This document shows positions 9,582-32,000 of a stretch of 32,000 nt of DNA, piece by piece; within the stretch, counting starts at the first letter, position 1, and each line of letters opens with the position of its first letter. The notes under the pieces were generated by a model. The model was not told the origin of the DNA and did not search any database. It saw only the letters and a program-made list of their open reading frames with translations. Both the position numbers and the translations under genes were made by a program. The DNA is from Desulfuromonas soudanensis (GTDB taxonomy: Bacteria > Desulfobacterota > Desulfuromonadia > Desulfuromonadales > WTL). The stretch spans positions 1,681,504 to 1,713,503 of the forward strand of contig NZ_CP010802.1 of NCBI RefSeq assembly GCF_001278055.1, read 5' to 3'.

Positions 9582-9600
9582 CTGGTGCAGGAAATGCAGG

Positions 9601-9687: not shown

Positions 9688-9917
9688 TGAGCCTATTTAC
9701 TGCACGATTCCAAGCAGGAGTTGGTCGATCGTATTTACCTTGGAATCGAAGAGTTCAACAGAGAGCCGGTCATATTTCGCTGGCGATACAAAATAGACGA
9801 ACTGGCCAGCGCATAGTTGATATGTTATTAGCAGAACGGACTACTAGTGTCCCGTTTGGTTAGTCCATTCAGATAATTCTGAGGCATTTTGGTCGTTGCT
9901 TTTTCCCGCCCCCTTCG

Positions 9918-10439: not shown

Positions 10440-10560
10440 CGGTCATCCTCCCTTTGAATTTATAGTCACGTGCAGGGTCAAATCTTGAATCTCAAATTTT
10501 TGGATATTTTCAGGTTATTCGGTGGGCAAAGTTGATTTTCAAGATGTGACCTCGGCCGGA

Positions 10561-11577: not shown

Positions 11578-11588
11578 ACAGGTCCCTT

Positions 11589-12281
11589 TTAGGCGGCAAT
11601 CGGTGGACTGTCAGCGCTTGCGCCGACATGCCAGCGCCAGTACCCAAACATTGCATTCACCAGAAAGAGCGACCACATTAAAACCATCAGGTCTCCTGAA
11701 TTTCCTCCGGCCTGGAAGCGCAAAAACCACATGATGACCGATAGGACATTCAACAGGATATAGAGCAGCCACTGTTCCTTATAGCGCCACATCATCAGAA
11801 ATGTCGCGAGGATGGATAGCACATTGGTGCTCGCATCGACATACGGCGTATTCTGGCCCGGATTCAAGGCCAGCAACTTGCCCAGCCCGAACATGCTCAA
11901 CATGCAGATGACTGCGATAACGGTCCGACCCTTCCCCGACAGACTCCGCATCCGGACAGCATGATTGTCCGAGGGATGCCGAACCCACATCAGATATCCG
12001 ATGACTCCAGTAGGCAAAAAGAACAGGATGTTGAGATACACCTCACCAAAAAGGCCGTTTGTGTAAGCGAGGATTGCGTAAGAGATACTGTTGTACAAAC
12101 CGAACAGATACCCTTCGCGACGACCGATAGCGATCAGGCCAACGCAGAGAATCCCCGAGAAGAAAATACTCGCGTCGAAAATGGTTTCAGAAAGAAATCC
12201 GCACAGAACAGCCCCGACCAAACCAAGGGCAGTCAGCCAAGAAATATCGATGAGATCATATGGTGATTTTTGTTTTGCCAT
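11589..12281 (-). CDS. pnuC: Nicotinamide riboside transporter PnuC
   Basis: 230 aa, about 7 TM, Trp-rich helices (...MMWRYKEQWLLYILLNVLSVIMWFLRF...) typical of PnuC. Classical pnuC-nadR synteny. Confidence 0.8.
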   Translation of the reverse strand: MAKQKSPYDLIDISWLTALGLVGAVLCGFLSETIFDASIFFSGILCVGLIAIGRREGYLFGLYNSISYAILAYTNGLFGEVYLNILFFLPTGVIGYLMWVRHPSDNHAVRMRSLSGKGRTVIAVICMLSMFGLGKLLALNPGQNTPYVDASTNVLSILATFLMMWRYKEQWLLYILLNVLSVIMWFLRFQAGGNSGDLMVLMWSLFLVNAMFGYWRWHVGASADSPPIAA

Positions 12282-12703: not shown

Positions 12704-12719
12704 TGGCATCATCATTGCT
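12704..12719 (+). promoter_or_regulatory. Sigma-54 (-24/-12) promoter
   Basis: TGGCAT-CATCA-TTGCT has exact GG-N10-GC spacing, about 97 nt upstream of the ATG at 12816. AAAGATTAAT direct repeats at 12633 and 12675 lie upstream. Confidence 0.65.
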
Positions 12720-12815: not shown

Positions 12816-13622
12816 ATGTCAGAACCATCGCGCAGGGAGTTTTTGAAGACGGGCGTCGGCGTCATCGCCGGGGCCGCATTGGTCGGCGGCGTCGCCTTGA
12901 CCGGAGCCAAAGAGGCCGAAGCCGCAGTCACCCAACCTTTCGGATACATTCCGCTGGACGTGGAGACGACCCGGCAACTCGGCTACGACGGCTACAAGGG
13001 GATCATTATCGACGGCGTCAAACACGCCCATTGCGGCTTCGCCTCCTTCAACGCCATCACCAGTCAACTGAAGGCCCTCGATCCCTATGGCCCCTACGCC
13101 AATATTCCGCCGGGGATGATGGACTGGGCGGCCAGCGGCGTCGCCGGTTTTGCCAGCTTTTGCGGGGCGCTTAACGGCGCCTGCGCGGCGGTGGGCCTGA
13201 TCTGCACCCCGGCGGATGCCAATGGCTTCATCAGCGACCTGTTGACCTGGTACACCGAGACCCTGCTGCCGAGCAACATCGTGGCCCCGACCGGGATTTT
13301 GCCGCAAAGTCTCGCCAGGACCACCCTCTGCCACAACTCCGTCACCAATTGGTGTCTCGCTTCCGGCATGGCCAGCGGCTCGCCGGAGCGCTCCGAGCGT
13401 TGCGCTCGGCTGGCCGGCGACGTCGCTGCCAAGACCGTCGAGATGCTGAACAACGGCCGCCTCGGCTTGCCGACGCCGGCCAGCAAGACCGTCTGCGTCT
13501 CCTGTCACTATACCGGGACGGATTACGCCGCCGGCCAGTTTACCCGCGGCAACGAAGACTGCACGGTCTGTCATACCGGCATCAAGAAGATTCCGGCGGG
13601 CGGGCATCGGGGCAAGTCGTAA
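12816..13622 (+). CDS. Tat-exported C_GCAxxG_C_C-family redox protein with a C-terminal diheme c module (split-Soret cytochrome c-like)
   Basis: SRREFLKTG twin-arginine signal. HCGFASFNAI...FCGALNGACAAVGLI matches the C_GCAxxG_C_C pattern. Two CxxCH motifs (CVSCH, CTVCH) near the C-terminus. GGAGG RBS. Confidence 0.7.
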   Translation: MSEPSRREFLKTGVGVIAGAALVGGVALTGAKEAEAAVTQPFGYIPLDVETTRQLGYDGYKGIIIDGVKHAHCGFASFNAITSQLKALDPYGPYANIPPGMMDWAASGVAGFASFCGALNGACAAVGLICTPADANGFISDLLTWYTETLLPSNIVAPTGILPQSLARTTLCHNSVTNWCLASGMASGSPERSERCARLAGDVAAKTVEMLNNGRLGLPTPASKTVCVSCHYTGTDYAAGQFTRGNEDCTVCHTGIKKIPAGGHRGKS

Positions 13623-18497: not shown

Positions 18498-19556
18498 TTA
18501 ACTTTCAAGCCAGGCATCGGTAACGGCAAGAAATTTTTTTATAAAATCATCACGGCCACATAAACGTGGTTCCGTAAGCAACTCATATGCACGATTGAGG
18601 GCCTCTCCGATCTCTTCACGATGCAGTTCGGCACAAAAGACAGAGAAGAAGTCTGAAAGATCGACCACCGCTAAGTCAAACGACAACCTATTGACAAATT
18701 TAATTAACTTGGTTGCCGGATGTAAATCTGAATCACTACGGACATTTGCAGCAAAAATTACGTATTTATGTAGTTTGCCATCAGATACTTTTGATCCAAA
18801 ATCAGTAAGTCTGTTTTTCCAGTCATTGCGGACAGTGACCTCATATGCAGCTATTAATTCATAATCCCTAAATTCTTCAATGTCACCTTTGGTCCCATCA
18901 AATTTATCTGATGCATGCGGATGGTGGGTTACAACTCGATGCCCAAAACGTCTCCTATGTATCTCGATGAAAGCCGCAACCAGAAACTGTTGTATGTGCC
19001 CCTCAGATGGAATGGCTATTAACTTCTCACAAAGACTAAGGCTTCGCGCATAGGATAAGTAACTTGCCGGGAGAGGTGGCAGAGCTTGTTGAATAACTCT
19101 TGAAGATTGCAATCGCCAAGCAATGTGGTCGACTAATTCTTTCCGTTGGCTTGGAGTGGTAGCCTTTAATCTTATTAGAAAATCTGAAAACCTTGAGTCT
19201 TTGGTAAGGTCAAATTGCCGCACAGCACCTTTCCAACCAAGATTTTCGCCGAATGCAGTTATGTTCTTATGGAATGTTATATTCCGGAAAGTCAACTCGC
19301 TTGCCAGTAACTTGTCGCCGTATCTGCCGCGCACACCCGTGGGTACTGATTTGAAATCCCATGTTTTGTCTACTATTGAATATACTGCAAGAAAGGCGCA
19401 AGCGAGCCTTAAACTTCCACCTTGTTGGTCTACATTATTGTCAAAAATATTTCTTATTGATATTGGTGCAGGCGAACCTAATGATTCACCATGAGAAATT
19501 CTGTCAATAAGACTAATTAATAAATGAACTGATTTTTCTATATTTTCATTTCTCAT
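18498..19556 (-). CDS. Putative type II restriction endonuclease (partner of the C5 methyltransferase)
   Basis: 352-aa AT-rich ORF whose start overlaps the methyltransferase stop by 4 nt. I could not identify a catalytic motif, so the call rests on context. Confidence 0.5.
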   Translation of the reverse strand: MRNENIEKSVHLLISLIDRISHGESLGSPAPISIRNIFDNNVDQQGGSLRLACAFLAVYSIVDKTWDFKSVPTGVRGRYGDKLLASELTFRNITFHKNITAFGENLGWKGAVRQFDLTKDSRFSDFLIRLKATTPSQRKELVDHIAWRLQSSRVIQQALPPLPASYLSYARSLSLCEKLIAIPSEGHIQQFLVAAFIEIHRRRFGHRVVTHHPHASDKFDGTKGDIEEFRDYELIAAYEVTVRNDWKNRLTDFGSKVSDGKLHKYVIFAANVRSDSDLHPATKLIKFVNRLSFDLAVVDLSDFFSVFCAELHREEIGEALNRAYELLTEPRLCGRDDFIKKFLAVTDAWLES

Positions 19557-20608
19557 AGAATCATCTCATCCTGTATAGCGTTAACACCTTTTATTTTTTC
19601 GATAAATTCACCAGTATTTGAGTGCCCATTCAATTGCGCGATTAAAGCCTTCCCTACGGCGAAAGCAAGCTCAGGTGGGACCGCATCACCGACTTGTTTA
19701 TATTGTGCCGACCGCTTACCTGAAAAATTTAAGTCTTGCGGGAAAGTTTGAATTAATGCGCACTCTTCTACACTGAGTCGTCTAGCCCCAGGAACAGCAC
19801 CTTCCCATGGTGCGCCGCCTGCTCGAAGGTGTGCGTGATATGCTGGCGCAATATTCGCAGTGTCGAGCCAATGAGTTTTATATCCACCTGACGAAGCTAA
19901 AATTGTGTGGCATGGCCCGTCAGGGTCGATTGGGCGACCGCCGCCATTATATATATGACCTGCATAAGGGCTAAGGCGCAGATCAGGGTATTTTGCATAT
20001 TTAACTGGGCAATTAGGTTGGTCACCAATCGGGTTGTCACCCAGTATGTCTAAAGCTTTTATGTGTAAATGTTTCGTTTCTGGCCCATGGGAAGGCATCG
20101 GGAATTTTAATTGACGATTACGAGCTCCCAGCACGATGAGACGTTTTCTTTTTTGCGGTACGCCGTAATCAGCTGAATTTAACACTGCCCAATTGAGCTG
20201 ATAGCCACAATCCGCCAGCCTTACTAAGACGTCATCAAAATATGGGCGAGCTTTTTTGAATATCAGACCTGGGACATTTTCCATAAGAAAAGCTTCTGGT
20301 TGAACCTCTTCTAGGCACCGGATAAACTCAGGTATCATGTCACGCTTATCGGCCTTCCCCTTCTGCAAACCTCCAATTGAAAATGGCTGGCATGGCGGTC
20401 CGCCAACAACAATATCGACCTTACCACGAAATGGAGAAAAAGATATTCGTCTAACATCTTCATTGAAGTGAATAGCGTCAGAGTCATGAGAAGTATAGGT
20501 CGTCATTGCATCGCGATTAATTTCTACGTTTGCGAGTACCTTTAAGCCAGCACGTCGAAGGCCAAGAGAGAGGCCTCCTGGTCCGGAAAATAAGTCTATT
20601 ATATGCAT
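19553..20608 (-). CDS. DNA (cytosine-5)-methyltransferase
   Basis: Motif I DLFSGPGG, motif IV GGPPCQPFS, motif VI ENVPG, motif VIII QKRKR, motif X GDAVPP. Confidence 0.95.
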   Translation of the reverse strand: MHIIDLFSGPGGLSLGLRRAGLKVLANVEINRDAMTTYTSHDSDAIHFNEDVRRISFSPFRGKVDIVVGGPPCQPFSIGGLQKGKADKRDMIPEFIRCLEEVQPEAFLMENVPGLIFKKARPYFDDVLVRLADCGYQLNWAVLNSADYGVPQKRKRLIVLGARNRQLKFPMPSHGPETKHLHIKALDILGDNPIGDQPNCPVKYAKYPDLRLSPYAGHIYNGGGRPIDPDGPCHTILASSGGYKTHWLDTANIAPAYHAHLRAGGAPWEGAVPGARRLSVEECALIQTFPQDLNFSGKRSAQYKQVGDAVPPELAFAVGKALIAQLNGHSNTGEFIEKIKGVNAIQDEMIL

Positions 20609-20802
20609 TTTAGTACCCCAAAACCGATTGTTGCTTTCAAAAGTTTGTGCTGATCGCGAGTTTTGACAGATCTCTTAGTTCAATGTAAATACGAAGAAAG
20701 GGGCAGACAACTTTCCGCCGCCTGACCCTTTCTGATTTATTGATCAGCCTACCATTTTAACGCCGCTGTTGTCATCCATTGCGTTAAGGGCTTCAGCAAT
20801 GC

Positions 20803-23031
20803 CTAGGCGCACTCACTATACCCACACGCATGACAGACGCAGCACCCGCCTTCATGCTCCACCGGCCCGCCGCATTCGGGGCAGGCGCCGCCGGTCTGGC
20901 TGTGGTCGGGGATCATGTCTTCGTGGATCATGTGCATCTGGATCGCCTTGGCGACGGCGTCGGCGCAGGAGGTGACGCGGTTGTCGCCGAAGCCGGCGGG
21001 TTTGTGGCAGGTGATGCCGATGAGCTGCTTGACGGCCTGCCTGGCCTGGACGCCGCTGCGCCAGGCGAGGGAGACGAGGCGGCCGATCGCTTCGCACTGG
21101 CTGGCGGCGCAACCGCCGGCCTTGCCCATGGTGGTGAAGAGTTCGAAGAGGCCTTCGTTGTCTTCGTTGATGGTGACGTAGAGGGGGCCGCAGCCGGTCT
21201 CCATCTGGTAGGTCGAACCACGGAGGGCCCGGGGGCGGTCCCGTTTGCGCCCTCCCTTGTGGGATTCCATGGGGACGGAGGCCTCGGGGGACTTCTCTTC
21301 CTTCTTGCCGACGGAGAGGACCTGCATGTCGCGGCTTCCGTCGCGGTAGATCGTCACCCCCTTGCACCCCTGGCTGTAGGCGAGGCGGTAGACGTTGGCG
21401 ACGTCGTCGCGGGTGGCGCTGTGGCCGAAGTTGACGGTCTTGGAGACGGCATTGTCGGTGTGGCGCTGGAAGGCGGCCTGCATCCGGATATGTTCTTCGG
21501 GGGAGATGTCGTGGGCGGTGACGAAGATGTTGCGGATGTCTTCGGGGATCTGCTCGATCCCTTCGAGGGTTCCGTGCTCGGCGATGATCTTCATCAGTTC
21601 GGGGGAATAGAAGCCGCGCTCCTTGGCGACCTTCTCGAAGAGGGGGTTGACCTCGACGAGGACGTCGTTGTCGAGAACCTGGCGCACGTAGGAGACGGCG
21701 AAGAGGGGCTCGATCCCGCTGGAGGAGTTGGCGATGATGGAGATGGTGCCGGTGGGGGCAATGGTGGTGCTGGTGGCGTTGCGCACCGGCTTCCCCCCCT
21801 TGACGTCGAAGGTGCTCCCCTTGAAGTTGGGGAAGGGGGCGCGCTCGACGGCGAGTTCGCGGGAGAAGGCCCGGGCCTCTTCGGTGATGAACTTCATGAC
21901 CTTTTCGCCGAGATCGACGGCCTGCTCGCTGCGGTAGGAGAGGCCGAGGAGGATGAGCAGGTCGGCCCATCCCATGACGCCGAGCCCGATCTTGCGGTTG
22001 GCGCGGGTCATCTCGTCGATCTGCGGCAGAGGGTAGTTGTTGACCTCGATGACGTTGTCGAGGAAGCGGGCGGCCAGACGTACGGTGCTGCGCAGCTTGT
22101 CCCAGTCGACCTTGCCGGCGCCGGTGATCATTTTGGCCAGGTTGATCGAGCCGAGGTTGCACGACTCGTAGGGGAGAAGGGGCTGCTCGCCGCAGGGGTT
22201 GGTCGCTTCGAACTCGCCGATCTGCGGGGTCGGATTGTCGCGGTTGAGGCGGTCGAGGAAGACGATCCCCGGCTCGCCGTTGGTCCAGGCCAGCTCGACG
22301 ATGTGCTCGAAGACCTTGCGGGCGGCGAGCTTCTTCAGCGGCTCGCCGCTGCGGGGGTTGATGATGTCGTACTCGCCGTCGGCTTCCACCGCCTGCATGA
22401 AAGCCTCGGTGATGCCGACGGAGAGGTTGAAGTTGGTCAGCACGTTCTGGTCGCGCTTGGCCATGATGAAATCCATGATGTCGGGATGGTCGACGCGCAG
22501 GATCCCCATGTTGGCGCCGCGGCGGGTGCCGCCCTGCTTGATCGTCTCGGTGGCGGCGTCGAAGACCTTCATGAAGGAGAGGGGGCCGCTCGAGACGCCG
22601 GAGGTGGAGCGAACCTCGTCGTTTGCCGGACGGATACGCGAAAAGGAGAAGCCGGTGCCGCCGCCGCTCTTGTGAATCAGCGCCGTCTGCTTGATCGCTT
22701 CGAAAATACTCTCCATCGAATCGCCGACGGGGAGGACGAAGCAGGCCGAGAGCTGGCCGAGCTCGCGACCGGCGTTCATCAGGGTCGGCGAGTTGGGGAG
22801 AAACTCGAGGGAGGTCATCATCGCGTAGAAGTCGTTCTCGAGGGCAACGGGGTCGACTTTGGTGCCGAGGCGGGTCTCGGCTTCGGCGATGGCGCGGGCA
22901 ACCCGGTGAAACATGTCGGCGGCGGTTTCCTGAACCTTCCCCTTGCTGTCGCGCTTGAGATACCGGCGTTCGAGTACGGTCAGGGCGTTTTTGGAGAGGG
23001 GGAGGGTGGCGGTTTCGGCCGTCTGCTTCAT
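20803..23031 (-). CDS. nrdJ: Adenosylcobalamin-dependent (class II) ribonucleotide reductase
   Basis: 742 aa. N-terminal ...LTVLERRYLKRD...; NPCGEQPLLPYESCNLGS active-site loop; C-terminal Cys-rich tail CPECG...CCVCHACGYSECA. Confidence 0.9.
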   Translation of the reverse strand: MKQTAETATLPLSKNALTVLERRYLKRDSKGKVQETAADMFHRVARAIAEAETRLGTKVDPVALENDFYAMMTSLEFLPNSPTLMNAGRELGQLSACFVLPVGDSMESIFEAIKQTALIHKSGGGTGFSFSRIRPANDEVRSTSGVSSGPLSFMKVFDAATETIKQGGTRRGANMGILRVDHPDIMDFIMAKRDQNVLTNFNLSVGITEAFMQAVEADGEYDIINPRSGEPLKKLAARKVFEHIVELAWTNGEPGIVFLDRLNRDNPTPQIGEFEATNPCGEQPLLPYESCNLGSINLAKMITGAGKVDWDKLRSTVRLAARFLDNVIEVNNYPLPQIDEMTRANRKIGLGVMGWADLLILLGLSYRSEQAVDLGEKVMKFITEEARAFSRELAVERAPFPNFKGSTFDVKGGKPVRNATSTTIAPTGTISIIANSSSGIEPLFAVSYVRQVLDNDVLVEVNPLFEKVAKERGFYSPELMKIIAEHGTLEGIEQIPEDIRNIFVTAHDISPEEHIRMQAAFQRHTDNAVSKTVNFGHSATRDDVANVYRLAYSQGCKGVTIYRDGSRDMQVLSVGKKEEKSPEASVPMESHKGGRKRDRPRALRGSTYQMETGCGPLYVTINEDNEGLFELFTTMGKAGGCAASQCEAIGRLVSLAWRSGVQARQAVKQLIGITCHKPAGFGDNRVTSCADAVAKAIQMHMIHEDMIPDHSQTGGACPECGGPVEHEGGCCVCHACGYSECA

Positions 23032-23319: not shown

Positions 23320-24432
23320 ATGGTAAAAATCGCTCAGGAAAGAGAATTAAACCCTCAGGCAGATCGGCGGGTTCCCCATATGAGTACCGACACTGGTTCA
23401 CCGGAGAACATCGAAGAGGAGCTGCGCAGCCTGAAAGGGATCGTCAGCGTCGCCCAGGTGGTGGTGAGTTCCCTCGAACTCGACGAGGTGCTGCAGAACA
23501 TCCTCTACAGCGCCATGGCCACCATGGGGATGCCGGCGGGGTCCATCGCCCTCTTCGAAGAGAAGTTCAGCGAACTCTCCCTGCACGCCCACGCCGGCCT
23601 CAGTCTCGACTTCGTCTCCCGCAACCGCTGGCGGGTCAAGACGGGGGGGCTGACCCACCGCATCCTCGAGGAGGGGGAGCTCTTCGTTGTCGAGGATACG
23701 GGCGACGCCGCCTTCTTCAATAACCCGCTGGCCGTCGCCGAGGGGATCCGCTCCCTGATCGCCGTTCCCCTCAAATATCAGGAGAAGATCGTGGGGATTC
23801 TCTACCTCAACGACTTTGCCCCCCGCACCTTTTCCGAAATGCGCCTCAGCCAGTTGGGTATTCTCGCCTCTTTTGCCACCATGAGCATCGACAACGCCCG
23901 CCTCCACGAGGCGACCCGGCTTCTGGCCTGCACCGACGGTCTCACCGGCCTCTACAACCACCGGCAGTTCACCCAGCTCTATGCCCGGGAGGTCTCCCGC
24001 GCCGAGCGCTCCGGCACCCCACTGTCGCTGGTGATGATGGACGTCGACAACTTCAAGAAGTTCAACGACACCTACGGTCACCCCGCCGGGGACCAGGTCC
24101 TGATCACCGTCGGCGAGATCCTGCGCAAAACCCTGCGCGAGGTCGATCTCCCCTGCCGCTACGGCGGCGAGGAGTTCATCGCCCTCCTCCCCGAGACCGA
24201 TCTCGAAGCGGCGCTCCTCGTCGCCGAGCGGGTGCGTCACGGGATCGAGCGCCACGCCACCCGGGGCCTGGCGGAGACGGTCACCGATCCGGTGACGGTG
24301 AGCATCGGCGTCGCCACCTATCCCCAGGACGGCACGGATCTCGAGACGCTGCTGAAACTGGTCGATTCCCTCCTTTACAAGGCCAAAAATGAAGGCAAGA
24401 ACCAAGTCTATCACGCGGCGCAGGGCGAGTGA
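23320..24432 (+). CDS. GAF-GGDEF diguanylate cyclase with an RxxD I-site
   Basis: N-terminal GAF-like region. ...TGLYNHRQF...MMDVDNFKKFNDTYGHPAGD...REVDLPCRYGGEEFIALLP (REVD sits 5 residues before GGEEF). The start is ambiguous (23320 or 23380). Confidence 0.85.
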   Translation: MVKIAQERELNPQADRRVPHMSTDTGSPENIEEELRSLKGIVSVAQVVVSSLELDEVLQNILYSAMATMGMPAGSIALFEEKFSELSLHAHAGLSLDFVSRNRWRVKTGGLTHRILEEGELFVVEDTGDAAFFNNPLAVAEGIRSLIAVPLKYQEKIVGILYLNDFAPRTFSEMRLSQLGILASFATMSIDNARLHEATRLLACTDGLTGLYNHRQFTQLYAREVSRAERSGTPLSLVMMDVDNFKKFNDTYGHPAGDQVLITVGEILRKTLREVDLPCRYGGEEFIALLPETDLEAALLVAERVRHGIERHATRGLAETVTDPVTVSIGVATYPQDGTDLETLLKLVDSLLYKAKNEGKNQVYHAAQGE

Positions 24433-24434
24433 CC

Positions 24435-25808
24435 ATGGCCGGTGAACGGATACTGATCGTCGATGACGAAGAGGGGATGCGGCGCCTCCTGGTCAGGGTG
24501 CTGGCCAGGGAAGGGTTCGAGACCTGCGCCGTCGCTTCCGGTCGCGAGGCGATGCAGCAGGTGGCGGTGGACTCCTTCGATCTGGTGATCACCGACATCC
24601 ACATGCCGGGAATGGGGGGGCTCGAACTCCTCGACGAGCTCAAGGCCTTCGATCCGGCGTTGCCGATCGTCGTCATTACCGCCTACGGCACCGTGGAGAG
24701 CGCGGTGCAGGCGCTGCGCGCCGGCGCCTACGACTACATCACCAAACCCTTCGAGACCGACGAGATCCGCCTCACCGTCGCCAAGGCCCTCGAACGCCAG
24801 CGCCTGCTGGCCGAGAACCGCTATCTCCACGAAGAGCTCGAGGGACGCTACGCCTTTACGGGGATCGTCGGCAGATCTCCGACGATGCAAAAGGTCTTCG
24901 AGGTCGCCTCCTCCGTCGCCGCCAGCACCGCCAACGTCCTGATCACCGGCGAGTCGGGGACGGGGAAGGAGCTCATCGCCCGCTCGATTCATTTCAACTC
25001 CCCGCGCAAGGACAAACCGTTCATCGTTCTCAACTGCGCCGCCCTCTCCGAAGGGGTGATGGAGAGCGAGCTCTTCGGCCACGAACGGGGAGCCTTCACC
25101 GGCGCCATGGCGACCAAGAAGGGGCGCTTCGAGCTGGCCCACGAAGGGACCCTCTTCATCGACGAAGTCGGCGAGATGAGTCTCAACGCCCAGGTCAAGC
25201 TGCTGCGGGTAATCCAGGAGCACGAGTTCGAGCGCGTCGGCGGGACCAAGACGATCCGCAGCGACGTGCGCATCGTCGCCGCCACCAACAAGGCCCTCGA
25301 GGCCGAGGTGAAGAAGGGGACTTTCCGCGAAGACCTCTACTACCGCCTCAACGTCGTCAACATCCCCCTGCCGCCCCTGCGGGAACGGCGGGAGGACATC
25401 GAGCCTCTGGCCCGGCATTTTCTCCATCAATACGTGCTGGAGACAGGCAAACGCATCGAAGACATCTCCCCCCGGGCCCTCTCCTGCCTTTTGGCCTACG
25501 AATGGCCGGGAAACGTGCGGGAGCTGCAGAACGCCATGGAGCGGGCGGTGGTCCTCGCCAAGGGGGAGACCCTCACCCCGCGGGATTTCCCCCAGGGGGT
25601 GCAGGGGCCGGGGCAGATCTGTCTCGACCTGCCGGAGCGCGGCGGGAGTCTCACGGAGATTCTCGAGGATCTGGAGATGCAGCTCATTCTCCAGACCCTG
25701 GCCCGCGAGAACGGCTCCCAGACCCGGGCCGCCTCCGCCCTCGGCATCAAGCGCACCACGCTGCGCTACAAGATGGAGAAGTACCGCCTCGTCGGCGGCG
25801 ACGATTGA
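24435..25808 (+). CDS. Sigma-54-dependent response regulator (NtrC family: REC-AAA+-Fis HTH)
   Basis: ILIVDDE...LVITDIHMPGMGG receiver. GESGTGKE Walker A. ERGAFTGA sigma-54 contact motif. C-terminal QTRAASALGIKRTTLRYKMEKY. The start lies 3 nt after the cyclase stop. Confidence 0.9.
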   Translation: MAGERILIVDDEEGMRRLLVRVLAREGFETCAVASGREAMQQVAVDSFDLVITDIHMPGMGGLELLDELKAFDPALPIVVITAYGTVESAVQALRAGAYDYITKPFETDEIRLTVAKALERQRLLAENRYLHEELEGRYAFTGIVGRSPTMQKVFEVASSVAASTANVLITGESGTGKELIARSIHFNSPRKDKPFIVLNCAALSEGVMESELFGHERGAFTGAMATKKGRFELAHEGTLFIDEVGEMSLNAQVKLLRVIQEHEFERVGGTKTIRSDVRIVAATNKALEAEVKKGTFREDLYYRLNVVNIPLPPLRERREDIEPLARHFLHQYVLETGKRIEDISPRALSCLLAYEWPGNVRELQNAMERAVVLAKGETLTPRDFPQGVQGPGQICLDLPERGGSLTEILEDLEMQLILQTLARENGSQTRAASALGIKRTTLRYKMEKYRLVGGDD

Positions 25809-25894: not shown

Positions 25895-25910
25895 TGGTAC
25901 GGGACTTGCT
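25895..25910 (+). promoter_or_regulatory. Sigma-54 (-24/-12) promoter
   Basis: TGGTAC-GGGAC-TTGCT has exact GG-N10-GC spacing. It lies 87 nt after the EBP gene and 187 nt upstream of the first operon gene. Confidence 0.7.
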
Positions 25911-25944
25911 CCGGGATTTAATAATCAAAGCAGGACCTTTGCCT

Positions 25945-26026
25945 CACGCGACGCCGCAACGACGCAACGCTTCAAGGTCAAAGTCCGGATCCAAAGATTT
26001 TCGTCGCGTCGTCGCGTCGTCGCGTG
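25945..26026 (+). promoter_or_regulatory. Structured leader: 26-position imperfect stem built from 8-mer tandem repeats
   Basis: Left arm CACGCGACGCCGCAACGACGCAACGC pairs with right arm (TCGTCGCG)x3 TG at 22 of 26 positions. The loop is 30 nt. Confidence 0.5.
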
Positions 26027-26096
26027 AAACAGAATTTGGTTGGCCCCTTATTTTTGTCTCTCAAACCGAGGCTAAATCTTTTCGTCATGAGCACTC

Positions 26097-27140
26097 GTGC
26101 ATAGAAACAGCCTCATACTCCTGATCGCCCTGATCCTTCTCGCTCTCGGCGCCTGTCGCGAGATCCCTTCGGATCGGCTCTACGCCCTCCGTCTCGACGC
26201 GGCGCCGGGCGAGTCCGACTGGGAGCGCGCCCTGCCGCGAACGGTCAGCGTCAAGGGGGGACGCGTTCACAAGGAAGTGCTGCTGGCGGATATCGACGAG
26301 GATACGGTACACACCACCACCGCCTCCTGCCATCACGGCGCCTCGCTCCCCGATCCGGTGGCCGTGGACATGCGGGCCTTCTACACCGAAAAAGACCTCT
26401 ACCTGCGCCTCTCCTGGAAGGACGCCACCTTCGATGCGGCGATGCGGGAGTGGACCTTCGACGGGGTGCAGTGGCACAATGGCGGAAACGCCGAGGACGG
26501 CTTCGGCCTCATCTTCGACGCCAAGAGTCGGTTCCAGCGCTTTTCCTGCTCCTTTGCCTGCCACATCGACGATTTCGGAGTCTCCGGCGCCAACTTCCAC
26601 GCCACGAACAAGATGAAGCTGGTCGAAAAGGGGGAGTGGGTCGATCTGTGGAACTGGAAGGCGCAGCGCACCGGACGCCACGGCTTTGCCGACGACCGCT
26701 ACCTCGACCCGGAGGGGATGCACGGCGACACCCCCGGCGAGATCTTCCGCGAGAACTCCAAGGCCCGGGTGACCGCCACCATCCCCTTTGCCGAGGGGGA
26801 CGCCCCGATTTATGATGCCGAAGGACTCTCCGTCGGCAAGGAATTCCGTCCGGCGGGGAGCCGGGCTCCCGGCTATCTCACCGAACGCCCCGTCGGCGGC
26901 CGCGGCGATGTCGCAGCTTTTGCCGTCTGGGACAACGGACGCTGGACCGTGACGCTGCGCCGCTCTCTCAACACCGGCGACCCCCATGACGTGATCTTCG
27001 TCCCCGGGGATCCGGAGGGGATCGCCTTCGGCCTGTCGGTCATGGACAACACCCTGCTCGAACACTACGCGTCGACCACCCTGGAACGAATCGTCCTGAT
27101 GCCCAGGAGCCAGCTGAACCTTGCCGGCCAGGGCGATTGA
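26097..27140 (+). CDS. Lipoprotein with an ethylbenzene-dehydrogenase-gamma/DOMON-like heme-binding domain (EB_dh-like)
   Basis: Lipobox LALGAC. ...AFYTEKDLYLRLSWKD..., ...DLWNWKAQRT... and ...TVTLRRSLNTGD resemble the EB_dh domain as I recall it. GTG start with no clear RBS. Confidence 0.6.
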   Translation: MHRNSLILLIALILLALGACREIPSDRLYALRLDAAPGESDWERALPRTVSVKGGRVHKEVLLADIDEDTVHTTTASCHHGASLPDPVAVDMRAFYTEKDLYLRLSWKDATFDAAMREWTFDGVQWHNGGNAEDGFGLIFDAKSRFQRFSCSFACHIDDFGVSGANFHATNKMKLVEKGEWVDLWNWKAQRTGRHGFADDRYLDPEGMHGDTPGEIFRENSKARVTATIPFAEGDAPIYDAEGLSVGKEFRPAGSRAPGYLTERPVGGRGDVAAFAVWDNGRWTVTLRRSLNTGDPHDVIFVPGDPEGIAFGLSVMDNTLLEHYASTTLERIVLMPRSQLNLAGQGD

Positions 27141-27159
27141 CCCCTACGGAGAACAGATC

Positions 27160-27912
27160 ATGAACCTCTTTCGCTTCGCCCTTTTCACCCTCCTGTCCCT
27201 CCCGCTGGCCCTTGCCGGCTGCTCCGACGACCCCGCCGCCGGTCGGTCCGGGAGCAAGGGGATGGCCCGCCTCGCCGGAACGGTGGTGAGCCCCCTGGAG
27301 GGGACGTACCTCTACATCTACAAGAAGGGGATGGATCTCTACGGTCCGGCCTTTGCCGTTTCCGAGGCGACCGGCGCCGACGGCCGCTTCGATCTCACCC
27401 TCCCCGAGGGGGAGTACATCGCCGTGGCCCGCAAGCGCGTCAACGGCGATGCCGCCGGTCCGATCGTCTCCGGGGACAATAAAAGCGATTTTCTCCCCCT
27501 TTCCGTCCGGGAGGGGATGGCCGAGATGACCGTTCTGGCGCCAGTGAAAATCGGCGACCAGAGGATGCTCACCAAGGAGGTTGCCGTCACCAAGACCGGC
27601 CTCGCCGGGCAGATCCTCGACAGCGACGGCAATCCCGTGGAGGGCGCCCGGGTCCACGTCTACGACCATGTCCAGATGTCCGAGCGTCCCAAGTACGTCT
27701 CGGAAAAGACCGGTCCCGACGGCCGCTATCTCATCTATCTCCCCGAGGGGGGGACCTACTACCTCGCCGCCCGGGACAAGTTCGGCGGCCCCCCCAAGCT
27801 CGGCGACCTCTACGGCCGGTACGACCAGGGGACCATCGAGCCTTCGGCGCTGGTGATCCGCCAGGGCGAGATCCTTCCCGACGTCGACATCACCGTGACC
27901 AAGGTGTGGTGA
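27160..27912 (+). CDS. Lipoprotein with two carboxypeptidase-regulatory-like (CarboxypepD_reg) domains
   Basis: Lipobox LALAGC. Duplicated pattern G.V.....G..V.VY....TG.DGR..L.LPEG.Y...A. GGAGA RBS. I trimmed the track ORF to the Met at 27160. Confidence 0.65.
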   Translation: MNLFRFALFTLLSLPLALAGCSDDPAAGRSGSKGMARLAGTVVSPLEGTYLYIYKKGMDLYGPAFAVSEATGADGRFDLTLPEGEYIAVARKRVNGDAAGPIVSGDNKSDFLPLSVREGMAEMTVLAPVKIGDQRMLTKEVAVTKTGLAGQILDSDGNPVEGARVHVYDHVQMSERPKYVSEKTGPDGRYLIYLPEGGTYYLAARDKFGGPPKLGDLYGRYDQGTIEPSALVIRQGEILPDVDITVTKVW

Positions 27913-28817
27913 TGAAGGCTCTGACCCTGGCCCTTTCGGCTCTCCTCCTGCTGACCCTTCTTGGCTGCCAGCAGCGCGCCCCCCTCGACATCGAGGCGCT
28001 GCAGGGGCGGGCCCGCGGCGGCGATCCGGCCGCTCTGCGCGAACTCGTCTCGCTCCTGGCGGTGACGGAAAACGGCATCGATGCCCGCGTCTACCCGATG
28101 ATCCTCGAACTCGGCCCTCCGGCCATCCCCGTTCTCCTCGAAGAGGCCGGCGCCGCCGACCGCAACCTGCGCGAGCATGTCATCGCCGCCCTCGGGACCC
28201 TCAAGGTCCGGGAGGCCGTCCCCTCCCTCGTCGCCGTTCTCGACGACGTTGGCCTCGGGCGCCGCTACGTCGCCGCCTGGGCGTTGGGGGAGATCGGCGA
28301 CCCGGCGGGGATCCCGTCTCTGATCCGGGCTCTCGACGACGACGAGCGCGAGGTGCGCAGGTATGCCAGCCGCGCCCTGATCCGCCTCAACCAGGCGGCC
28401 GTTTCTCCTCTCCTCGACTACCTCGGCGGTGCTTCGAGCCGCGGCGAGGGGGGGGCGGTGCGCGTTCTGGGGGATATCGGCGACCGGCGCGCCCTCGAGG
28501 CGCTGCTGGCAAGGACCTCCGGACCCAACCGCGGCGACGTCTTCTTCGCACTCGGCAAGCTGCGCGATCCCCGGGCGGAGGCGGCTCTGATCGCCGGGCT
28601 CGGCGATGAGGAGTGGCGGGTGCGGATGAACGCCGCCATGGCCCTCGGCCCCCTGGGGAGCCCCGCCGCCATCGAGCCGCTGCGCAAGGCGATGGAGGAC
28701 GAAATTCATGTGGTGCGCGAATGGTCGGCCCGCTCCCTGGAGACGATCACCGGCAGCCACGTCCTCTACCGCAACGAAAAAGGGGAATACGTCCCCCCCT
28801 ACAACGTCTACCACTGA
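27912..28817 (+). CDS. HEAT-repeat (PBS-lyase-type) lipoprotein
   Basis: Lipobox LTLLGC. Repeated ...R..AA.ALGEIGDP.A.P.LI.AL.D.. units. The ATG shares one nucleotide with the upstream TGA. Confidence 0.7.
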   Translation: MKALTLALSALLLLTLLGCQQRAPLDIEALQGRARGGDPAALRELVSLLAVTENGIDARVYPMILELGPPAIPVLLEEAGAADRNLREHVIAALGTLKVREAVPSLVAVLDDVGLGRRYVAAWALGEIGDPAGIPSLIRALDDDEREVRRYASRALIRLNQAAVSPLLDYLGGASSRGEGGAVRVLGDIGDRRALEALLARTSGPNRGDVFFALGKLRDPRAEAALIAGLGDEEWRVRMNAAMALGPLGSPAAIEPLRKAMEDEIHVVREWSARSLETITGSHVLYRNEKGEYVPPYNVYH

Positions 28818-28857
28818 CGGTCGATCCCGGGGGGCACTCCCCCCGAAGGACGGTGCT

Positions 28858-30363
28858 ATGTTCGACAACCTTCTCGAAATCAAGGGGCTCGGTCCGCTCC
28901 TGCGCTCCCCCTGGCCCTGGCGCCTGGTCCGTCTGGCCGGGCTCCTGGTCCTTCTGGCGATGACCGCCTACGGCTGGCACCATCACGCCATCCCCGGGGT
29001 CGAGGTTGCCGACCCGCTGATGTACACCAACTTCGCCAGCTACTTCTTCTGGGTGCTGTGGATGATGGGGGTGGTCTTTCTTGCCCTCCTCATGGGGCGG
29101 GCCTGGTGCACCGTCTGCCCCCTGGGGTGGATCAACGGCCTGATCGCCCGCCTCGGCCTCAATCGCCCCCTCCCTTCCTGGCTCGACAACTTCGTGCCGG
29201 TGACCCTGGCCCTGATCGCCCTGCAGCTGGCGGTCTATTTTCTCGCCATCCACCGCTTTCCCGACTACACCGCCGCCCTTCTGGCCCTCATGCTCCTGCT
29301 GGCTGTCGGCGCCGGGCTGATCTTTCGCAAGCGCTCCTTCTGCACCCTCTTCTGCCCCGCCGGAGCGGTCTTCGGTCTCTACGCCCGGGTCGCCCCTTTT
29401 CAGCTGCGGGTGCGGGACGGGGAAGTCTGCAACGCCTGCGAGTCCAAAAACTGCGTCTCCGGTGCGCCTCTGCAGAAGCGCCTCACCCTGGGATCGGCGG
29501 TCCTCACCTGGCAGGGGCACCGAGCCGACTGCCCCGCCGATCTGGTTCTCGCCGGGATCGAGGAGAGCGCCACCTGCTCCCTGTGCCTGCACTGCGTGCA
29601 GAACTGCGACAACGACAACATCGTCCTCGGTCGCCGCCCCTGGCTGGCGGATCTGGGGCGCGGCGGCCTGCGCCCGAGCGAGACCCTCTTCTTTCTCGTC
29701 CTCCTCGGGATGGTGACCGCCAACTTCAGCAAGGTCTACGTCGACCTGCGCGAGGTGATCTTCTGGGCTCCGCAGCAGGCCGCTGTTCTCCTTGGCTGGG
29801 CCTCCGGCGGCTATTACCTGCTCACCGCCCTCTGGGTGGCCCTGGTCTTTCCCCTGTTGCTTCTGTTGCCGGGGTATCTGGTGCTGCGCCTCGGCGAGCT
29901 GCAGGTCGAAACGCTCCCCGTTTCCTCCTCTGCTCCTCCGGCGCCTGCCGCGGCGGCGCCCCACCGCTCGGGCTTCTGGAACACCCTCGGCGAGCTCGCC
30001 CTGCCGCTGATCCCCATGGTGCTTTCGGCCCACGTGGTGCTGGCGGTGGTCAAGCTTAACGCCAAGGGGGGGTATCTCCCCTTCGTTATGGCCGACCCGA
30101 GCGGGGTGAAGAGCTATCTGGCGATCAGCGTCATGAACACCGTTGCGGCCCCGGGGGTCCTCATCCCCCTCGACATCCTCAAATGGCTGGCGCTGGCCCT
30201 CCTTATCGGCGGCTATCTCCTCGCCCTGGCCGGGACGCGGCGCGCCGCCGCCTCCCTCGGCGGCGAAAAGGTGAAGACCTATCTGCTCGCCGCCATGGTT
30301 CCGGTCACCCTGGTCGCCGCCATCTACGGCTCGACCCTCTTCACCTGGCTCTTTATCCGATGA
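28858..30363 (+). CDS. Polytopic ferredoxin-type membrane protein (NapH/MauN-like polyferredoxin)
   Basis: CTVCPLGW and CTLFCPAG motifs on membrane loops, then CNACESKNC and CSLCLHCVQNC Fe-S cluster motifs. Hydrophobic helices lie before and after. I trimmed the track ORF to the Met at 28858. Confidence 0.65.
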   Translation: MFDNLLEIKGLGPLLRSPWPWRLVRLAGLLVLLAMTAYGWHHHAIPGVEVADPLMYTNFASYFFWVLWMMGVVFLALLMGRAWCTVCPLGWINGLIARLGLNRPLPSWLDNFVPVTLALIALQLAVYFLAIHRFPDYTAALLALMLLLAVGAGLIFRKRSFCTLFCPAGAVFGLYARVAPFQLRVRDGEVCNACESKNCVSGAPLQKRLTLGSAVLTWQGHRADCPADLVLAGIEESATCSLCLHCVQNCDNDNIVLGRRPWLADLGRGGLRPSETLFFLVLLGMVTANFSKVYVDLREVIFWAPQQAAVLLGWASGGYYLLTALWVALVFPLLLLLPGYLVLRLGELQVETLPVSSSAPPAPAAAAPHRSGFWNTLGELALPLIPMVLSAHVVLAVVKLNAKGGYLPFVMADPSGVKSYLAISVMNTVAAPGVLIPLDILKWLALALLIGGYLLALAGTRRAAASLGGEKVKTYLLAAMVPVTLVAAIYGSTLFTWLFIR

Positions 30364-30842
30364 GGCGCGCTCTTCTGAAACGGGCAGTGCTTTTGACCTT
30401 CCTTTTGCTGACGGCGGTTTCCCCGGCCCTCGGCTGCTTCGGACCCAAGCTCTATTTCGGGGTTTCTCCCGGGCCCGAGGCGGAGATCCTCTACCAGCTC
30501 TGCGCTCTCTACGTCAAGGAGAAGACCGGGACCGAATCGGTGCGGGTCGATGTGGCCACCGGCGAGGGGCTCGCCCTCCTCGGGGACGACAAGCTCGACC
30601 TGGTCCTGGTCGAAGGGAGTGACGGGGAGGAGGATCTTCTGCGCCTCGCCCCTTTCCCGGCCTTGCGGGCCGGCAAGCGCCCCCGGGACGATCTGCAGTT
30701 CACCACCGTTCTGCCGGCGCTACACAAGCTCGCCGGGCTCCTGCGCCGGGAGGATGTCGCCGCGCTGCTGGCGCGCGTCGCCGCCGGAGAAGCGTCCGCC
30801 GCTGCGGCCCGCGCCTTCCTCACGGACCGGGGGTGGATCTGA
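30360..30842 (+). CDS. Small lipoprotein, function unknown
   Basis: Lipobox PALGC. 160 aa. ATGA overlap with the upstream stop. Confidence 0.5.
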   Translation: MRRALLKRAVLLTFLLLTAVSPALGCFGPKLYFGVSPGPEAEILYQLCALYVKEKTGTESVRVDVATGEGLALLGDDKLDLVLVEGSDGEEDLLRLAPFPALRAGKRPRDDLQFTTVLPALHKLAGLLRREDVAALLARVAAGEASAAAARAFLTDRGWI

Positions 30843-31645
30843 TGGCGACTGCCCGCATCGCTCCCTTGCTCCTTCTGCTCCTCGCCGGCTGCCTGAATCC
30901 CTCCGGGCAGCCGGTCACCCCCGCCGAACCCCGGGAGGTGGCGGGAATCCTCCGCGGCGAGACGGTGCTGGAAGGGGATGTCCTCTTCAGCGGCGACGTG
31001 CTGATTCCGGCGGGGAGCACCCTGACGCTGCGCCCGGGAACCCGGGTGCGCATCCAGGTCTCCGAGAGCACCCGCATCGACCCCGAATACCTTTCGCCGG
31101 CCACCGAGCTCCTGGTGCGCGGGACCCTCAACATCCTCGGGACTCCGGAGGCGCCGGTGGTCTTCCTGACCACGGAGGCTCCCGGGTCGGAGGTCGGGGA
31201 CGACCCCCTGTGGGCCGGAATCATTCTCGACGGCGCTGCCGCAATCCTGCGCCACCTGCAGCTCTCCCGGGCCGAGACCGGAGTCCTCTGTCTCCGCTCC
31301 TCGCCGCGGGTCGAAGGGAGCGTCTTTTCCGAATGTCGCTACGGCCTCATCGCCCAGCAGGGGAGTGCGCCTCTTCTTGTGGGAAATACCTTCAAAAACG
31401 GCGAGGGGGGGGTCTTCTGCTGGCTCGGCTCCGATCCCGTCCTCGAGGGGAACGGCATCGTCGGCAACGCAGAGGAGGGGGTGTTCGTCGATGCCACCAG
31501 CCGTCCGACCCTGGCGGGCAACCGCATCACCGGCAACGCCATCGGGCTGGCCCTCTATCCCCGCGACCTCGTCTACGATCCGACCCAGATCCGGGAGAAC
31601 GAAGAAAATATCCGCCTCCTCGGGCCGGAGGAGGTGTCGCCATGA
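30842..31645 (+). CDS. Right-handed parallel beta-helix (PbH1/NosD-like) lipoprotein
   Basis: Lipobox LLAGC. Repeated GN.I.GN...GV/GL units (GNTFKNGEGGVF, GNGIVGNAEEGVF, GNRITGNAIGLAL). The start overlaps the upstream stop. Confidence 0.65.
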   Translation: MATARIAPLLLLLLAGCLNPSGQPVTPAEPREVAGILRGETVLEGDVLFSGDVLIPAGSTLTLRPGTRVRIQVSESTRIDPEYLSPATELLVRGTLNILGTPEAPVVFLTTEAPGSEVGDDPLWAGIILDGAAAILRHLQLSRAETGVLCLRSSPRVEGSVFSECRYGLIAQQGSAPLLVGNTFKNGEGGVFCWLGSDPVLEGNGIVGNAEEGVFVDATSRPTLAGNRITGNAIGLALYPRDLVYDPTQIRENEENIRLLGPEEVSP

Positions 31646-32000
31646 GAACGATCCCGCTGTTGATCGCCCTTGTCGCCGTTCTCGCCGCGCCGGCGCTGGC
31701 CGCTGAGCCCTTGCGCTACACCGGGGAGGAGACCCTTTTTCAGGATACGGTCTGGGAAGGGGAGGTGCACATAGACGGAATCCTGACGGTGGCCCCGGGG
31801 ACGACGCTGGAAATCCGCCCCGGGACCGTGGTCCGCCTGAGCCGCCTCGACAGCAACGGCGACGGCATCGGCGAGCATGAACTCTTTGTCCAGGGGGTCC
31901 TGCGCGCCCTCGGCACCGCCGCGGAGCCGATTCTCTTCACCTCCGCCGAGAAGACCCCCGTTCCCGGCGACTGGGGGGCGATCAACATGATGGCCTCCGA
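31642..32000 (+). CDS. Secreted beta-helix protein, paralog of 30842..31645 (3' end lies outside the window)
   Basis: Frame 1 is open to the window end. MRTIPLLIALVAVLAAPALA|AEP signal peptide. ...GILTVAPGTTLEIRPGTVVRL...LFVQGVLRALGTAAEPILFTS...GDWGAI parallels the N-terminus of the preceding protein. ATGA overlap. Confidence 0.6.
   Translation, partial: MRTIPLLIALVAVLAAPALAAEPLRYTGEETLFQDTVWEGEVHIDGILTVAPGTTLEIRPGTVVRLSRLDSNGDGIGEHELFVQGVLRALGTAAEPILFTSAEKTPVPGDWGAINMMAS

Follow-up and report, generated by a model that had tools for sequence, protein, structure and literature searches.

GeoRSP (TIGR04302, TIGR04303 and TIGR04304) is a gene cassette that was named by bioinformatics and has no published function. 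Proteins of the YedE family (TIGR04112) are statistically tied to SelD and are typically encoded beside selenocysteine lyase genes (Lin et al. 2015, PMC5322559), and the EF2568 family was itself founded on a selenocysteine lyase (bioRxiv 10.1101/2020.02.07.939272). The high-affinity system for selenium uptake in bacteria is still unknown (PMC9312934), and sulfur respiration in Desulfuromonadales-type bacteria depends on a selenoenzyme (PMC13510729). Here, we describe a locus of ~15 kb and roughly 16 genes in which a GeoRSP cassette, a YedE-family protein and an EF2568-type desulfurase occur together with a NapH-like membrane polyferredoxin, an EB_dh-fold heme lipoprotein and two NosD-type beta-helix proteins. 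Its promoter-proximal half lies in a 32,000-nucleotide (nt) stretch of Desulfuromonas soudanensis (NZ_CP010802.1, positions 1,681,504 to 1,713,503 of the forward strand; hereafter, the window). As a whole, the locus is best explained, although tentatively, as a system that acquires a chalcogen, probably selenium, with the help of redox reactions and that links this uptake to a carrier or cofactor made from a peptide. The architecture and the regulation described below can be put forward with high confidence.

Gene content and organization of the locus

Seven genes of the locus (g1 to g7) begin in the window, all on the + strand. An independent gene caller run on the public Logan contig L001, which is identical to the window sequence from position 26002 on (window coordinate = L001 + 26001), returned the same gene coordinates; the preliminary description of the window had counted at least seven genes. 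The cluster runs past the end of the window, as that description had anticipated, and L001 adds g8 to g12 and a short peptide open reading frame (ORF); the later genes are taken from relatives. In L079, a 96%-identical relative, and in other species, the three genes after the peptide ORF encode a SPASM-only protein (g13), a desulfurase and a lipoprotein of ~91 amino acids (aa). The genes are as follows:

26097 to 27140, + strand: g1, EB_dh-fold heme-domain lipoprotein (Pfam EB_dh, 98.4 bits)
27160 to 27912, + strand: g2, tandem CarboxypepD_reg (Ig-like) lipoprotein (Pfam match and internal repeat)
27912 to 28817, + strand: g3, HEAT/PBS-lyase-repeat lipoprotein (Pfam HEAT_2, 1.3e-34; HEAT_PBS, 8.9e-30)
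28858 to 30363, + strand: g4, membrane polyferredoxin, 501 aa (Pfam Fer4_5)
30360 to 30842, + strand: g5, 160-aa lipoprotein with a predicted single-lobe binding-protein fold (AlphaFold2 [AF2] model and Foldseek)
30842 to 31645, + strand: g6, NosD-type right-handed beta-helix lipoprotein (Pfam NosD, 46.8 bits; Beta_helix, 44.8 bits)
31642 to 32000, + strand: g7, secreted NosD-type beta-helix protein, 362 aa, extending past the window end (NosD and Beta_helix matches)
L001 6924 to 7856: g8, PhnD/PtxB-like binding lipoprotein
L001 7862 to 8401: g9, membrane-anchored protein, 179 aa
L001 8406 to 9473: g10, YedE-family protein
L001 9512 to 9826: g11, PqqD protein
L001 9819 to 10823: g12, radical SAM/SPASM protein
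L001 10890 to 10946 (window-equivalent 36891 to 36947): peptide ORF, 18 codons

Four junctions between g1 and g7 have overlapping stop and start codons, by 1 nt at 27912 and 30842 and by 4 nt (ATGA) at 30360 and 31642, just as first read from the window. The five lipoboxes and the single Sec (general secretion) signal noted at that stage are also all in place: g1 carries LGAC, g2 LAGC, g3 LLGC, g5 ALGC and g6 LAGC, and the Sec-type signal of g7 reads ALA/AE. Twin-arginine (Tat) signals are absent from all products of the locus. The window had appeared to lack a recognizable catalytic subunit, and this holds through the full locus, where neither a molybdoenzyme nor NosZ nor a multiheme cytochrome is encoded. 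No Rfam model matched the window or L001. We found no characterized system with this architecture, and no relevant publication on the locus, GeoRSP, TIGR04302 to TIGR04304, the domain combination or, within the library searched, the peptide motif.

Conservation and division into two modules

One genome per species was scanned with a profile of the polyferredoxin, which gave 70 loci, fifty-odd of them from Desulfuromonadales at 50 to 65% identity, and the gene arrangements were obtained by tblastn with all cluster proteins. Two arrangements appeared. Type A (about 30 loci) comprises a GGDEF gene, an activator gene and g1 to g12 in identical order; 26 of these loci are long enough to reach g12, and about 22 reach the desulfurase and the small lipoprotein. 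Type B (about 11 loci, among them those of Geothermobacter hydrogeniphilus and Geoalkalibacter ferrihydriticus) contains g1 to g4 only, with divergent flanks that encode NosD/CarboxypepD_reg pairs, an 810-aa membrane protein, and FG-GAP/ASPIC and TPR proteins. In the genomes with type B loci, the genes from g5 to the small lipoprotein are found elsewhere, directly behind a neighborhood of ribonucleotide reductase and activator genes like that of the window. Given this split, we distinguish two modules, M1 (g1 to g4) and M2 (g5 to g15). A 242-aa lipoprotein encoded after g4 in type B loci was considered as a possible g5 and turned out not to be a homologue.

Several observations indicate that M1 and M2 belong together: they form a fused operon in ~30 species, they are each preceded by the same TGGTAC-N5-TTGCT element when they stand apart, and in Geothermobacter the peptide gene is at the M1 locus and its maturase at the M2 locus. 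Co-conservation, one of the checks suggested with the preliminary description, is thus seen as the same gene order in dozens of species-level genomes. M1 recurs even in a metagenome-assembled genome (MAG) of Rokubacteria, where CarboxypepD_reg and NosD-type proteins again go with it and a second polyferredoxin is present, so that beta-helix proteins are the constant partners of M1. In that MAG (L055, 3981 to 13476), the second polyferredoxin is longer (Fer4_5 plus several dicluster domains) and is encoded directly upstream of the EB_dh gene, and the CarboxypepD_reg and NosD-type genes come after the g4 homologue.

The peptide gene and the proteins of module M2

Between the radical SAM and SPASM-only genes lies an unannotated ORF of sequence MKKYxKPxVVGSSNVHPC, which was found at 26 loci. 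In the window genome it reads MQKYVKPRVVGSSNVHPC (L001 10890 to 10946) and has AAGGAGG 7 nt upstream; a strong Shine-Dalgarno sequence of this type precedes every copy. Its positions in three relatives are as follows:

L079, 11098 to 11154: peptide ORF
L078, 11104 to 11160: peptide ORF
L074, 12525 to 12581, minus strand: peptide ORF

All 26 DNA versions are distinct, with Y4, K6, P7, S12, V15, H16, P17 and C18 invariant and their codons varying synonymously, and the third codon position is variable in 17 of the 18 codons. By this substitution pattern the ORF is clearly under coding constraint, and the peptide is probably the precursor or substrate of GeoRSP. None of the NCBIfam models matches it. 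A GC hairpin followed by a run of T lies right after the ORF in about half of the loci (in L079, GGGGGCAGC-CAT-GCTGCCCCC-T8) and resembles a terminator rather than a selenocysteine insertion sequence (SECIS) element.

In every type A locus and every stand-alone M2 locus, the genes follow one another as PqqD, radical SAM, (peptide), SPASM. Of the three proteins, the radical SAM/SPASM protein g12 passes its GeoRSP model (TIGR04303, 440.1 bits; cutoff, 400), and NCBI names its orthologues GeoRSP. The best match of the PqqD protein g11 is TIGR04302, just under the cutoff (92.4 bits versus 100), and that of the SPASM-only protein, which has no radical SAM part, is TIGR04304 (86 to 105 bits versus 300 in the orthologues of L072 and L079). 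The desulfurase, an aminotransferase of class V, reaches 451 to 470 bits in its orthologues on the EF2568-type model TIGR01977 (cutoff, 377), the second-best model being that of the selenocysteine lyase SclA (329 to 332 bits versus 525). The YedE protein g10, a putative selenium transporter, scores 404.4 bits on TIGR04112 (cutoff, 200) and only 25.6 on the model of the thiosulfate transporter TsuA. Upstream of it, g8 has its nearest counterparts in PtxB, ArrX and HtxB, which are binders of phosphite and arsenate, and weakly matches a putative selenate-binding model.

The product of the first gene of M2, g5, shares 99% identity with a D. soudanensis hypothetical protein and belongs to no Pfam or NCBIfam family. 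A C-F-G-P-K-L motif follows its lipobox. Its AF2 model (predicted local distance difference test [pLDDT], 93.4) was matched by Foldseek to domain 1 of TmArgBP, OpuAC/BC, MetQ and TupA (probability 1.0, TM score 0.4 to 0.5), so that the protein can confidently be predicted to adopt the fold of a single lobe from a type II periplasmic binding protein. NosL was tried as an identity for g5 and rejected, as there is no NosL Pfam match and the confident model matches binding-protein lobes only. The beta-helix proteins g6 and g7 had been called NosD-like in the preliminary description. This stands at the level of the Pfam NosD and Beta_helix repeats (g6, 46.8 bits on PF05048; cutoff, 23.6) but does not extend to the NosD equivalog, TIGR04247, which they do not reach (21.3 bits; cutoff, 300). 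Genes for a NosF/NosY ABC partner, NosL, NosZ or another cupro-enzyme were absent from all loci examined.

The redox proteins of module M1

The EB_dh, tandem CarboxypepD_reg and HEAT-repeat domains recognized in g1 to g3 from the sequence alone were all borne out by Pfam. The EB_dh match of g1 (PF09459) lies far above the gathering cutoff of 33.3 bits, and the single Pfam CarboxypepD_reg match of g2 is complemented by its two halves being 38% identical (E = 9e-9), which makes the domains tandem. On TIGR03477, the model for the gamma subunit of type II dimethyl sulfoxide (DMSO) reductases, g1 stays below the cutoff (31.4 bits versus 169.85); its closest solved chains are NxrC (7b04_C, 7e-10) and EbdC (2ivf_C). 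M173, H323, SCHHG (C78, H79 and H80) and C151-x3-C155-H156 are invariant across 38 orthologues. In a weak alignment, M173 falls within two residues of EbdC Met108 and H323 lies near EbdC Lys201; there is no invariant Lys. The protein has exactly four Cys, all of them conserved, namely, the lipobox Cys, C78, C151 and C155.

Residues 72 to 80 and 151 to 156 of g1 correspond to the motifs DTVHxxTASCHHG and F-S/T-C-x-x-A-C-H (CX3CH), which are invariant even in the distant homologues from Rokubacteria. As CX3CH is a known variant of the heme c attachment motif, g1 might possess a second, covalent heme or metal site besides the canonical heme pocket. The only other Cys pattern of this kind in the locus is a CRDCH among the SPASM Cys of g13, a protein without a signal peptide, where we regard it as a chance match.

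For g4, the NapH-like polyferredoxin of the preliminary description, the Fer4_5 domain, the CxxCP and CxxxCP motifs and the two Fe-S cluster motifs were recovered, but the NapH/MauN models were missed (TIGR02163, 35.7 bits versus a cutoff of 213; PRK09477, 31.6 versus 234) and an extra helical bundle was found. Its invariant residues are C84xxC87P, C162xxxC166P, C191/194/199, C225P and C240/243/246/250, which include two 4Fe-4S-type motifs, as well as H132, and H392 is invariant in an alignment of 14 sequences. The first motif is CxxCP and not CX3CP. Some 10 helices are predicted, four in the N-terminal NapH-like part and ~6 in a C-terminal bundle of ~230 residues, and from the helix order the Cys motifs and the Fe-S domain would face the cytoplasm like those of NapH. 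Full-length homologues number more than 200, all unnamed. Neither a profile search of Protein Data Bank (PDB) sequences nor a fold search with the AF2 model, which is of moderate quality (pLDDT, 66.6), produced matches (for the fold, none with an E value below 0.4). NapG, NapA or Mau genes were found in none of the loci examined.

Sigma-54 promoter, activator and leader

The following features precede g1 in the window:

23320 to 24432, + strand: GAF-GGDEF diguanylate cyclase gene (Pfam GGDEF, 1.4e-49; GAF_2, 2e-15)
24429 to 25808, + strand: NtrC-type sigma-54 enhancer-binding response regulator (Pfam Sigma54_activat, 5.8e-73; Response_reg, 4.4e-33; HTH_8, 1e-14)
25895 to 25910, + strand: sigma-54 -24/-12 promoter element TGGTAC-N5-TTGCT (pattern search and conservation)
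25944 to 26027, no strand: palindromic repeat element of roughly 95 nt (fold and copy comparison)

The promoter element, TGGTACGGGACTTGCT, begins 87 nt past the stop codon of the activator gene, which agrees with the earlier placement of a sigma-54 promoter directly after the gene of an NtrC-type activator. Matches to TGGYAY-N5-TTGCW number two in the 32-kb window, where 0.04 are expected, and TGGTA[CT]-N5-TTGC[TA] precedes the g1 orthologue in 35 of 40 related loci and, in genomes with a stand-alone M2, also the g5 orthologue. The activator combines a receiver, an AAA+ and a Fis-type helix-turn-helix domain, and its GAFTGA motif is visible in the translation. It is encoded directly upstream of the locus in 27 genomes (72 to 81% identity) and its gene overlaps that of the GAF-GGDEF protein by 4 nt, a conserved pair; the latter gene is syntenic upstream of the type A loci and in Geothermobacter. 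Hence, judging from the sequence, the operon is very probably transcribed from this sigma-54 promoter under the control of the adjacent NtrC-type activator. No histidine kinase is encoded within the window or near the activator gene, and a search of the regions upstream of the promoters for a common activator-binding palindrome gave no convincing motif.

The promoter stands ~186 nt from the start codon of g1, instead of the usual 60 to 100 nt, because a palindromic repeat of ~95 nt has been inserted in the leader. The repeat has 26-nt arms that are 88% complementary (fold, -56.8 kcal/mol; z, -2.75), and a second copy, 84% identical, is located in the gap between g7 and g8 (L001 6738 to 6836). 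Its sequence is TTTGCCTCACGCGACG...CGTCGCGTGAAACA. Other species, whose leaders span 60 to 100 nt, do not have it; the repeat is not part of the conserved system and looks like a repetitive extragenic palindromic or miniature inverted-repeat transposable element (REP/MITE)-like insertion specific to this genome.

The second sigma-54-like element of the window, TGGCATCATCATTGCT at 12704 to 12719, is found ~97 nt upstream of an ORF (12816 to 13622) that carries a C_GCAxxG_C_C redox domain, a family with selenoproteins among its members. Similar elements, CGGCACAGGGCTTGCT and CGGTACACCACTTGCT, stand before a divergent operon in genomes with g1 to g4 alone (L074, 4369 to 6835; L075, 2626 to 5085, minus strand). 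That operon encodes the 810-aa membrane protein and NosD-type and CarboxypepD_reg proteins, and the elements before it hint at a larger regulon.

Farther upstream, the neighborhood (window 8112 to 12281 and 18498 to 23031) appears unrelated to the locus. It includes genes for an ArsP-type permease, a NadR-like/PnuC pair and a class II ribonucleotide reductase, and a C5 cytosine methylase that, with a 352-aa partner of no assigned family, might form a restriction-modification pair. The ribonucleotide reductase gene stays syntenic with the activator gene in other genera.

Proposed redox-assisted chalcogen acquisition and alternative explanations

The genes of the window had been taken for a quinol-linked envelope redox module. 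The link to quinol stays putative; g4 misses the NapH models and has an extra C-terminal bundle. The redox unit is present, but it represents only the first half of the locus, and the downstream genes for YedE, the oxyanion-type binder, GeoRSP and the desulfurase point to a redox module that is coupled to chalcogen trafficking and peptide maturation. M1 holds the ingredients of a trans-membrane electron path, i.e., an Fe-S membrane protein and a periplasmic heme-domain lipoprotein. On the periplasmic side M2 contributes g5, the two beta-helix proteins, the PtxB/ArrX-like oxyanion-type binder and small anchored proteins, and in the membrane YedE, whereas the products without a signal sequence (PqqD, radical SAM/SPASM, peptide, SPASM-only and desulfurase/lyase) are presumed to be cytoplasmic.

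In the acquisition model that we propose, M1 would carry electrons from the membrane or the cytoplasm to the periplasmic heme protein, which together with the beta-helix and binding proteins would capture and reduce oxidized or poorly soluble chalcogen species. YedE would import the reduced product, and the desulfurase/lyase and the radical-SAM-modified, Cys-terminal peptide would handle it as a carrier or cofactor. The chalcogen would most likely be selenium, with sulfur as a possibility. Selenium is favored by the association of YedE with SelD and selenocysteine lyase genes, by the lyase that founded the EF2568 family, by the selenoenzyme on which sulfur respiration depends and by the fact that no high-affinity uptake system is known. 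As a mechanism deduced from gene content, such a route for selenium or another chalcogen is possible but somewhat doubtful.

Several points weigh against it. There is no direct evidence for the substrate, and the selenium function assigned to YedE is a prediction from comparative genomics alone. The desulfurase stays below the SclA cutoff (332 versus 525 bits) and could simply supply sulfur to the many Fe-S proteins encoded here. The genes selD, selA, selB, yedF and SirA-like genes were not found within 10 kb of any locus examined. Selenocysteine recoding was searched for and discarded, as orthologues of 14 proteins showed no TGA opposite a Cys, and the mixed stop codons of the peptide ORF (TGA 20, TAA 7 and TAG 1) indicate a genuine stop and not selenocysteine. 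The locus encodes neither an exporter nor a peptidase that could act on the peptide. Finally, the crossing of electrons from cytoplasmic Fe-S clusters to a periplasmic heme is unexplained even for NapH, and the structural model of g4 is only moderate. Sulfur as the chalcogen, or a pyrroloquinoline quinone (PQQ)-like cofactor role for the peptide, is a live alternative.

During the search for recoding, in-frame stops appeared only in one frameshift-ridden MAG, L053, in which every cluster gene has numerous in-frame stops and frameshifts; these most likely reflect long-read assembly error rather than pseudogenization.

Of the other explanations, the one that survives best is a periplasmic oxidoreductase with a peptide-derived cofactor. 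GeoRSP would build a small redox cofactor from the residues at the C terminus of the peptide. The beta-helix proteins would use this cofactor after its export, and electrons would be exchanged with the quinone pool, in either direction, by way of the g1 heme and g4. The part of YedE and the desulfurase would be limited to supplying sulfur or selenium for cofactor synthesis. An 18-residue precursor that comes with PqqD as a protein of its own and with a radical SAM/SPASM enzyme is indeed the layout of PQQ and mycofactocin systems, and the best non-GeoRSP models of the maturase are AhbD (205 bits), the mycofactocin maturase MftC (193 bits) and then NirJ, with PqqE at 117 bits. The maturase is also far better conserved across loci than the envelope proteins (72 to 97% versus 35 to 60% identity), as cofactor biosynthesis would predict, the locus has no other catalytic subunit, and the peptide gene of Geothermobacter accompanies M1. 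However, equivalents of PqqB/C/F or MftD/E, that is, peptidases and tailoring enzymes, are not encoded, nor is an exporter, the binding of organic redox cofactors is not known for NosD-type beta-helices, and nothing in the locus points to a substrate. We consider this explanation unlikely.

The locus could also be read as an accessory electron conduit whose acceptor is solid or extracellular (for example, elemental sulfur, metal oxides or electrodes). The beta-helix and Ig-like lipoproteins would then bind the solid, and the GeoRSP/YedE half would be an unrelated neighbor responsible for a peptide natural product that is secreted. The host Desulfuromonadales respire sulfur, metals and electrodes, M1 of Geoalkalibacter stands beside large multiheme cytochrome genes, and some genomes have M1 without an adjoining M2. 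Yet the two modules are one tightly packed operon in ~30 species and have the promoter motif in common when apart, and the Geothermobacter peptide gene is located in the M1 locus. Moreover, the proteins are lipoproteins or Sec exported, type A loci have no outer-membrane porin partner, and no peptide exporter is encoded, all of which makes a conduit quite improbable.

Least probable of all, and hardly credible, is the nos-like assembly or maintenance of a metallocenter for a copper or other metal enzyme encoded elsewhere, in which a NosR/NosH-like donor works with NosD-like and NosL-like periplasmic factors: g6 and g7 do carry Pfam NosD repeats, g4 is NapH/NosH-like, the small lipoprotein g5 sits where NosL might and the C-terminal His-Pro-Cys of the peptide could conceivably bind Cu(I), but the idea is weak because three defining features fail, namely, TIGR04247 (21 bits versus 300), NosF/NosY with NosZ or any other cupro-enzyme, and g5, which has no NosL match and folds as a binding-protein lobe.

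To return to the locus as a whole, its domains all come from known families and part of it is already labeled “GeoRSP system” in databases. There is a real, if small, chance that the system is categorically new. We rate as equally improbable the more specific proposal that GeoRSP makes, from the 18-residue peptide, a new peptide-derived cofactor or chalcogen (selenium) carrier working with a dedicated envelope chain of the polyferredoxin, the EB_dh heme lipoprotein and the NosD-type proteins.

Comparison with known systems

The electron donors of the NapGH/NosGH/NosR type (Fer4_5, PF12801), which include the cupric reductase CcoG, resemble g4 in their transmembrane helices, the Cys-x(2-3)-Cys-Pro motifs and the two 4Fe-4S-type motifs, and like NapH, g4 is encoded beside periplasmic redox and accessory proteins. 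NapH and MauN are four-helix proteins, whereas g4 has ~10 predicted helices, including the C-terminal bundle of ~6 without a PDB fold match; it also differs from NapH by having CxxCP instead of CX3CP and by its score (36 versus 213 bits). In place of a NapG-, NapA- or NosZ-type partner, its presumed partner is the EB_dh-fold heme lipoprotein. The latter is of the same domain family as the gamma subunits EbdC, SerC and NxrC and shares with them Sec export; in a weak alignment, an invariant Met of g1 falls near the heme-ligand position of EbdC Met108. Unlike those subunits, g1 is lipid anchored and has neither a molybdopterin alpha nor an Fe-S beta subunit in its locus; the position of the Lys ligand of EbdC is apparently taken by the invariant His323, and the SCHHG and CX3CH motifs are additional. 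The beta-helix proteins g6 and g7 recall NosD in their periplasmic location and NosD-type repeats, and a small lipoprotein is found alongside as in NosD/NosL systems, but the equivalog is missed, NosFY and NosZ are lacking and g5 does not have the NosL fold. The combination of a NapH-like polyferredoxin, an EB_dh heme lipoprotein and NosD-type proteins without a classical catalytic subunit widens the known range of partners of this family of membrane electron donors.

As in the pairs of YedE and selenocysteine lyase described by Lin et al. (2015), a TIGR04112 YedE and an EF2568/SclA-family enzyme are encoded in one locus, and as with AioX/ArrX-type binders that signal to sigma-54 activators, a PhnD-fold oxyanion-type binder goes with an NtrC-type activator and a sigma-54 promoter. 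Compared with both kinds of system, genes for SelD, YedF, SirA-like or DUF3343 proteins and a histidine kinase are missing nearby. Still, with YedE, an SclA-family enzyme, an oxyanion-type binder and an electron supply under common regulation, the locus is a concrete candidate for selenium uptake, and the Desulfuromonadales are rich in selenoproteins. If the more specific proposal on GeoRSP given above is right, this would be the first regulated, dedicated bacterial pathway for selenium uptake.

Like the PQQ (PqqA/D/E) and mycofactocin (MftA/B/C) systems, the peptide half of the locus combines a radical SAM/SPASM enzyme with a PqqD-type chaperone that stands alone and with a precursor of very few residues. 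It differs from them in the precursor core GSSNVHPC with its C-terminal Cys and in a SPASM-only paralogue that is present instead of tailoring enzymes or peptidases. In agreement with GeoRSP, the radical SAM/SPASM protein passes the equivalog and its gene has those for PqqD and the SPASM-only protein on either side, as expected for the cassette; the latter two proteins fall below their cutoffs. What sets the locus apart from the cassette as it was named is that the genes are part of a sigma-54 locus of roughly 16 genes, which also encodes envelope redox proteins, and that they include an 18-residue candidate substrate outside all NCBIfam models. The conserved peptide thus provides the orphan GeoRSP label with a candidate substrate and, if the proposal on GeoRSP holds, the whole would represent a previously unrecognized class of peptide-dependent periplasmic redox or selenium-acquisition system.

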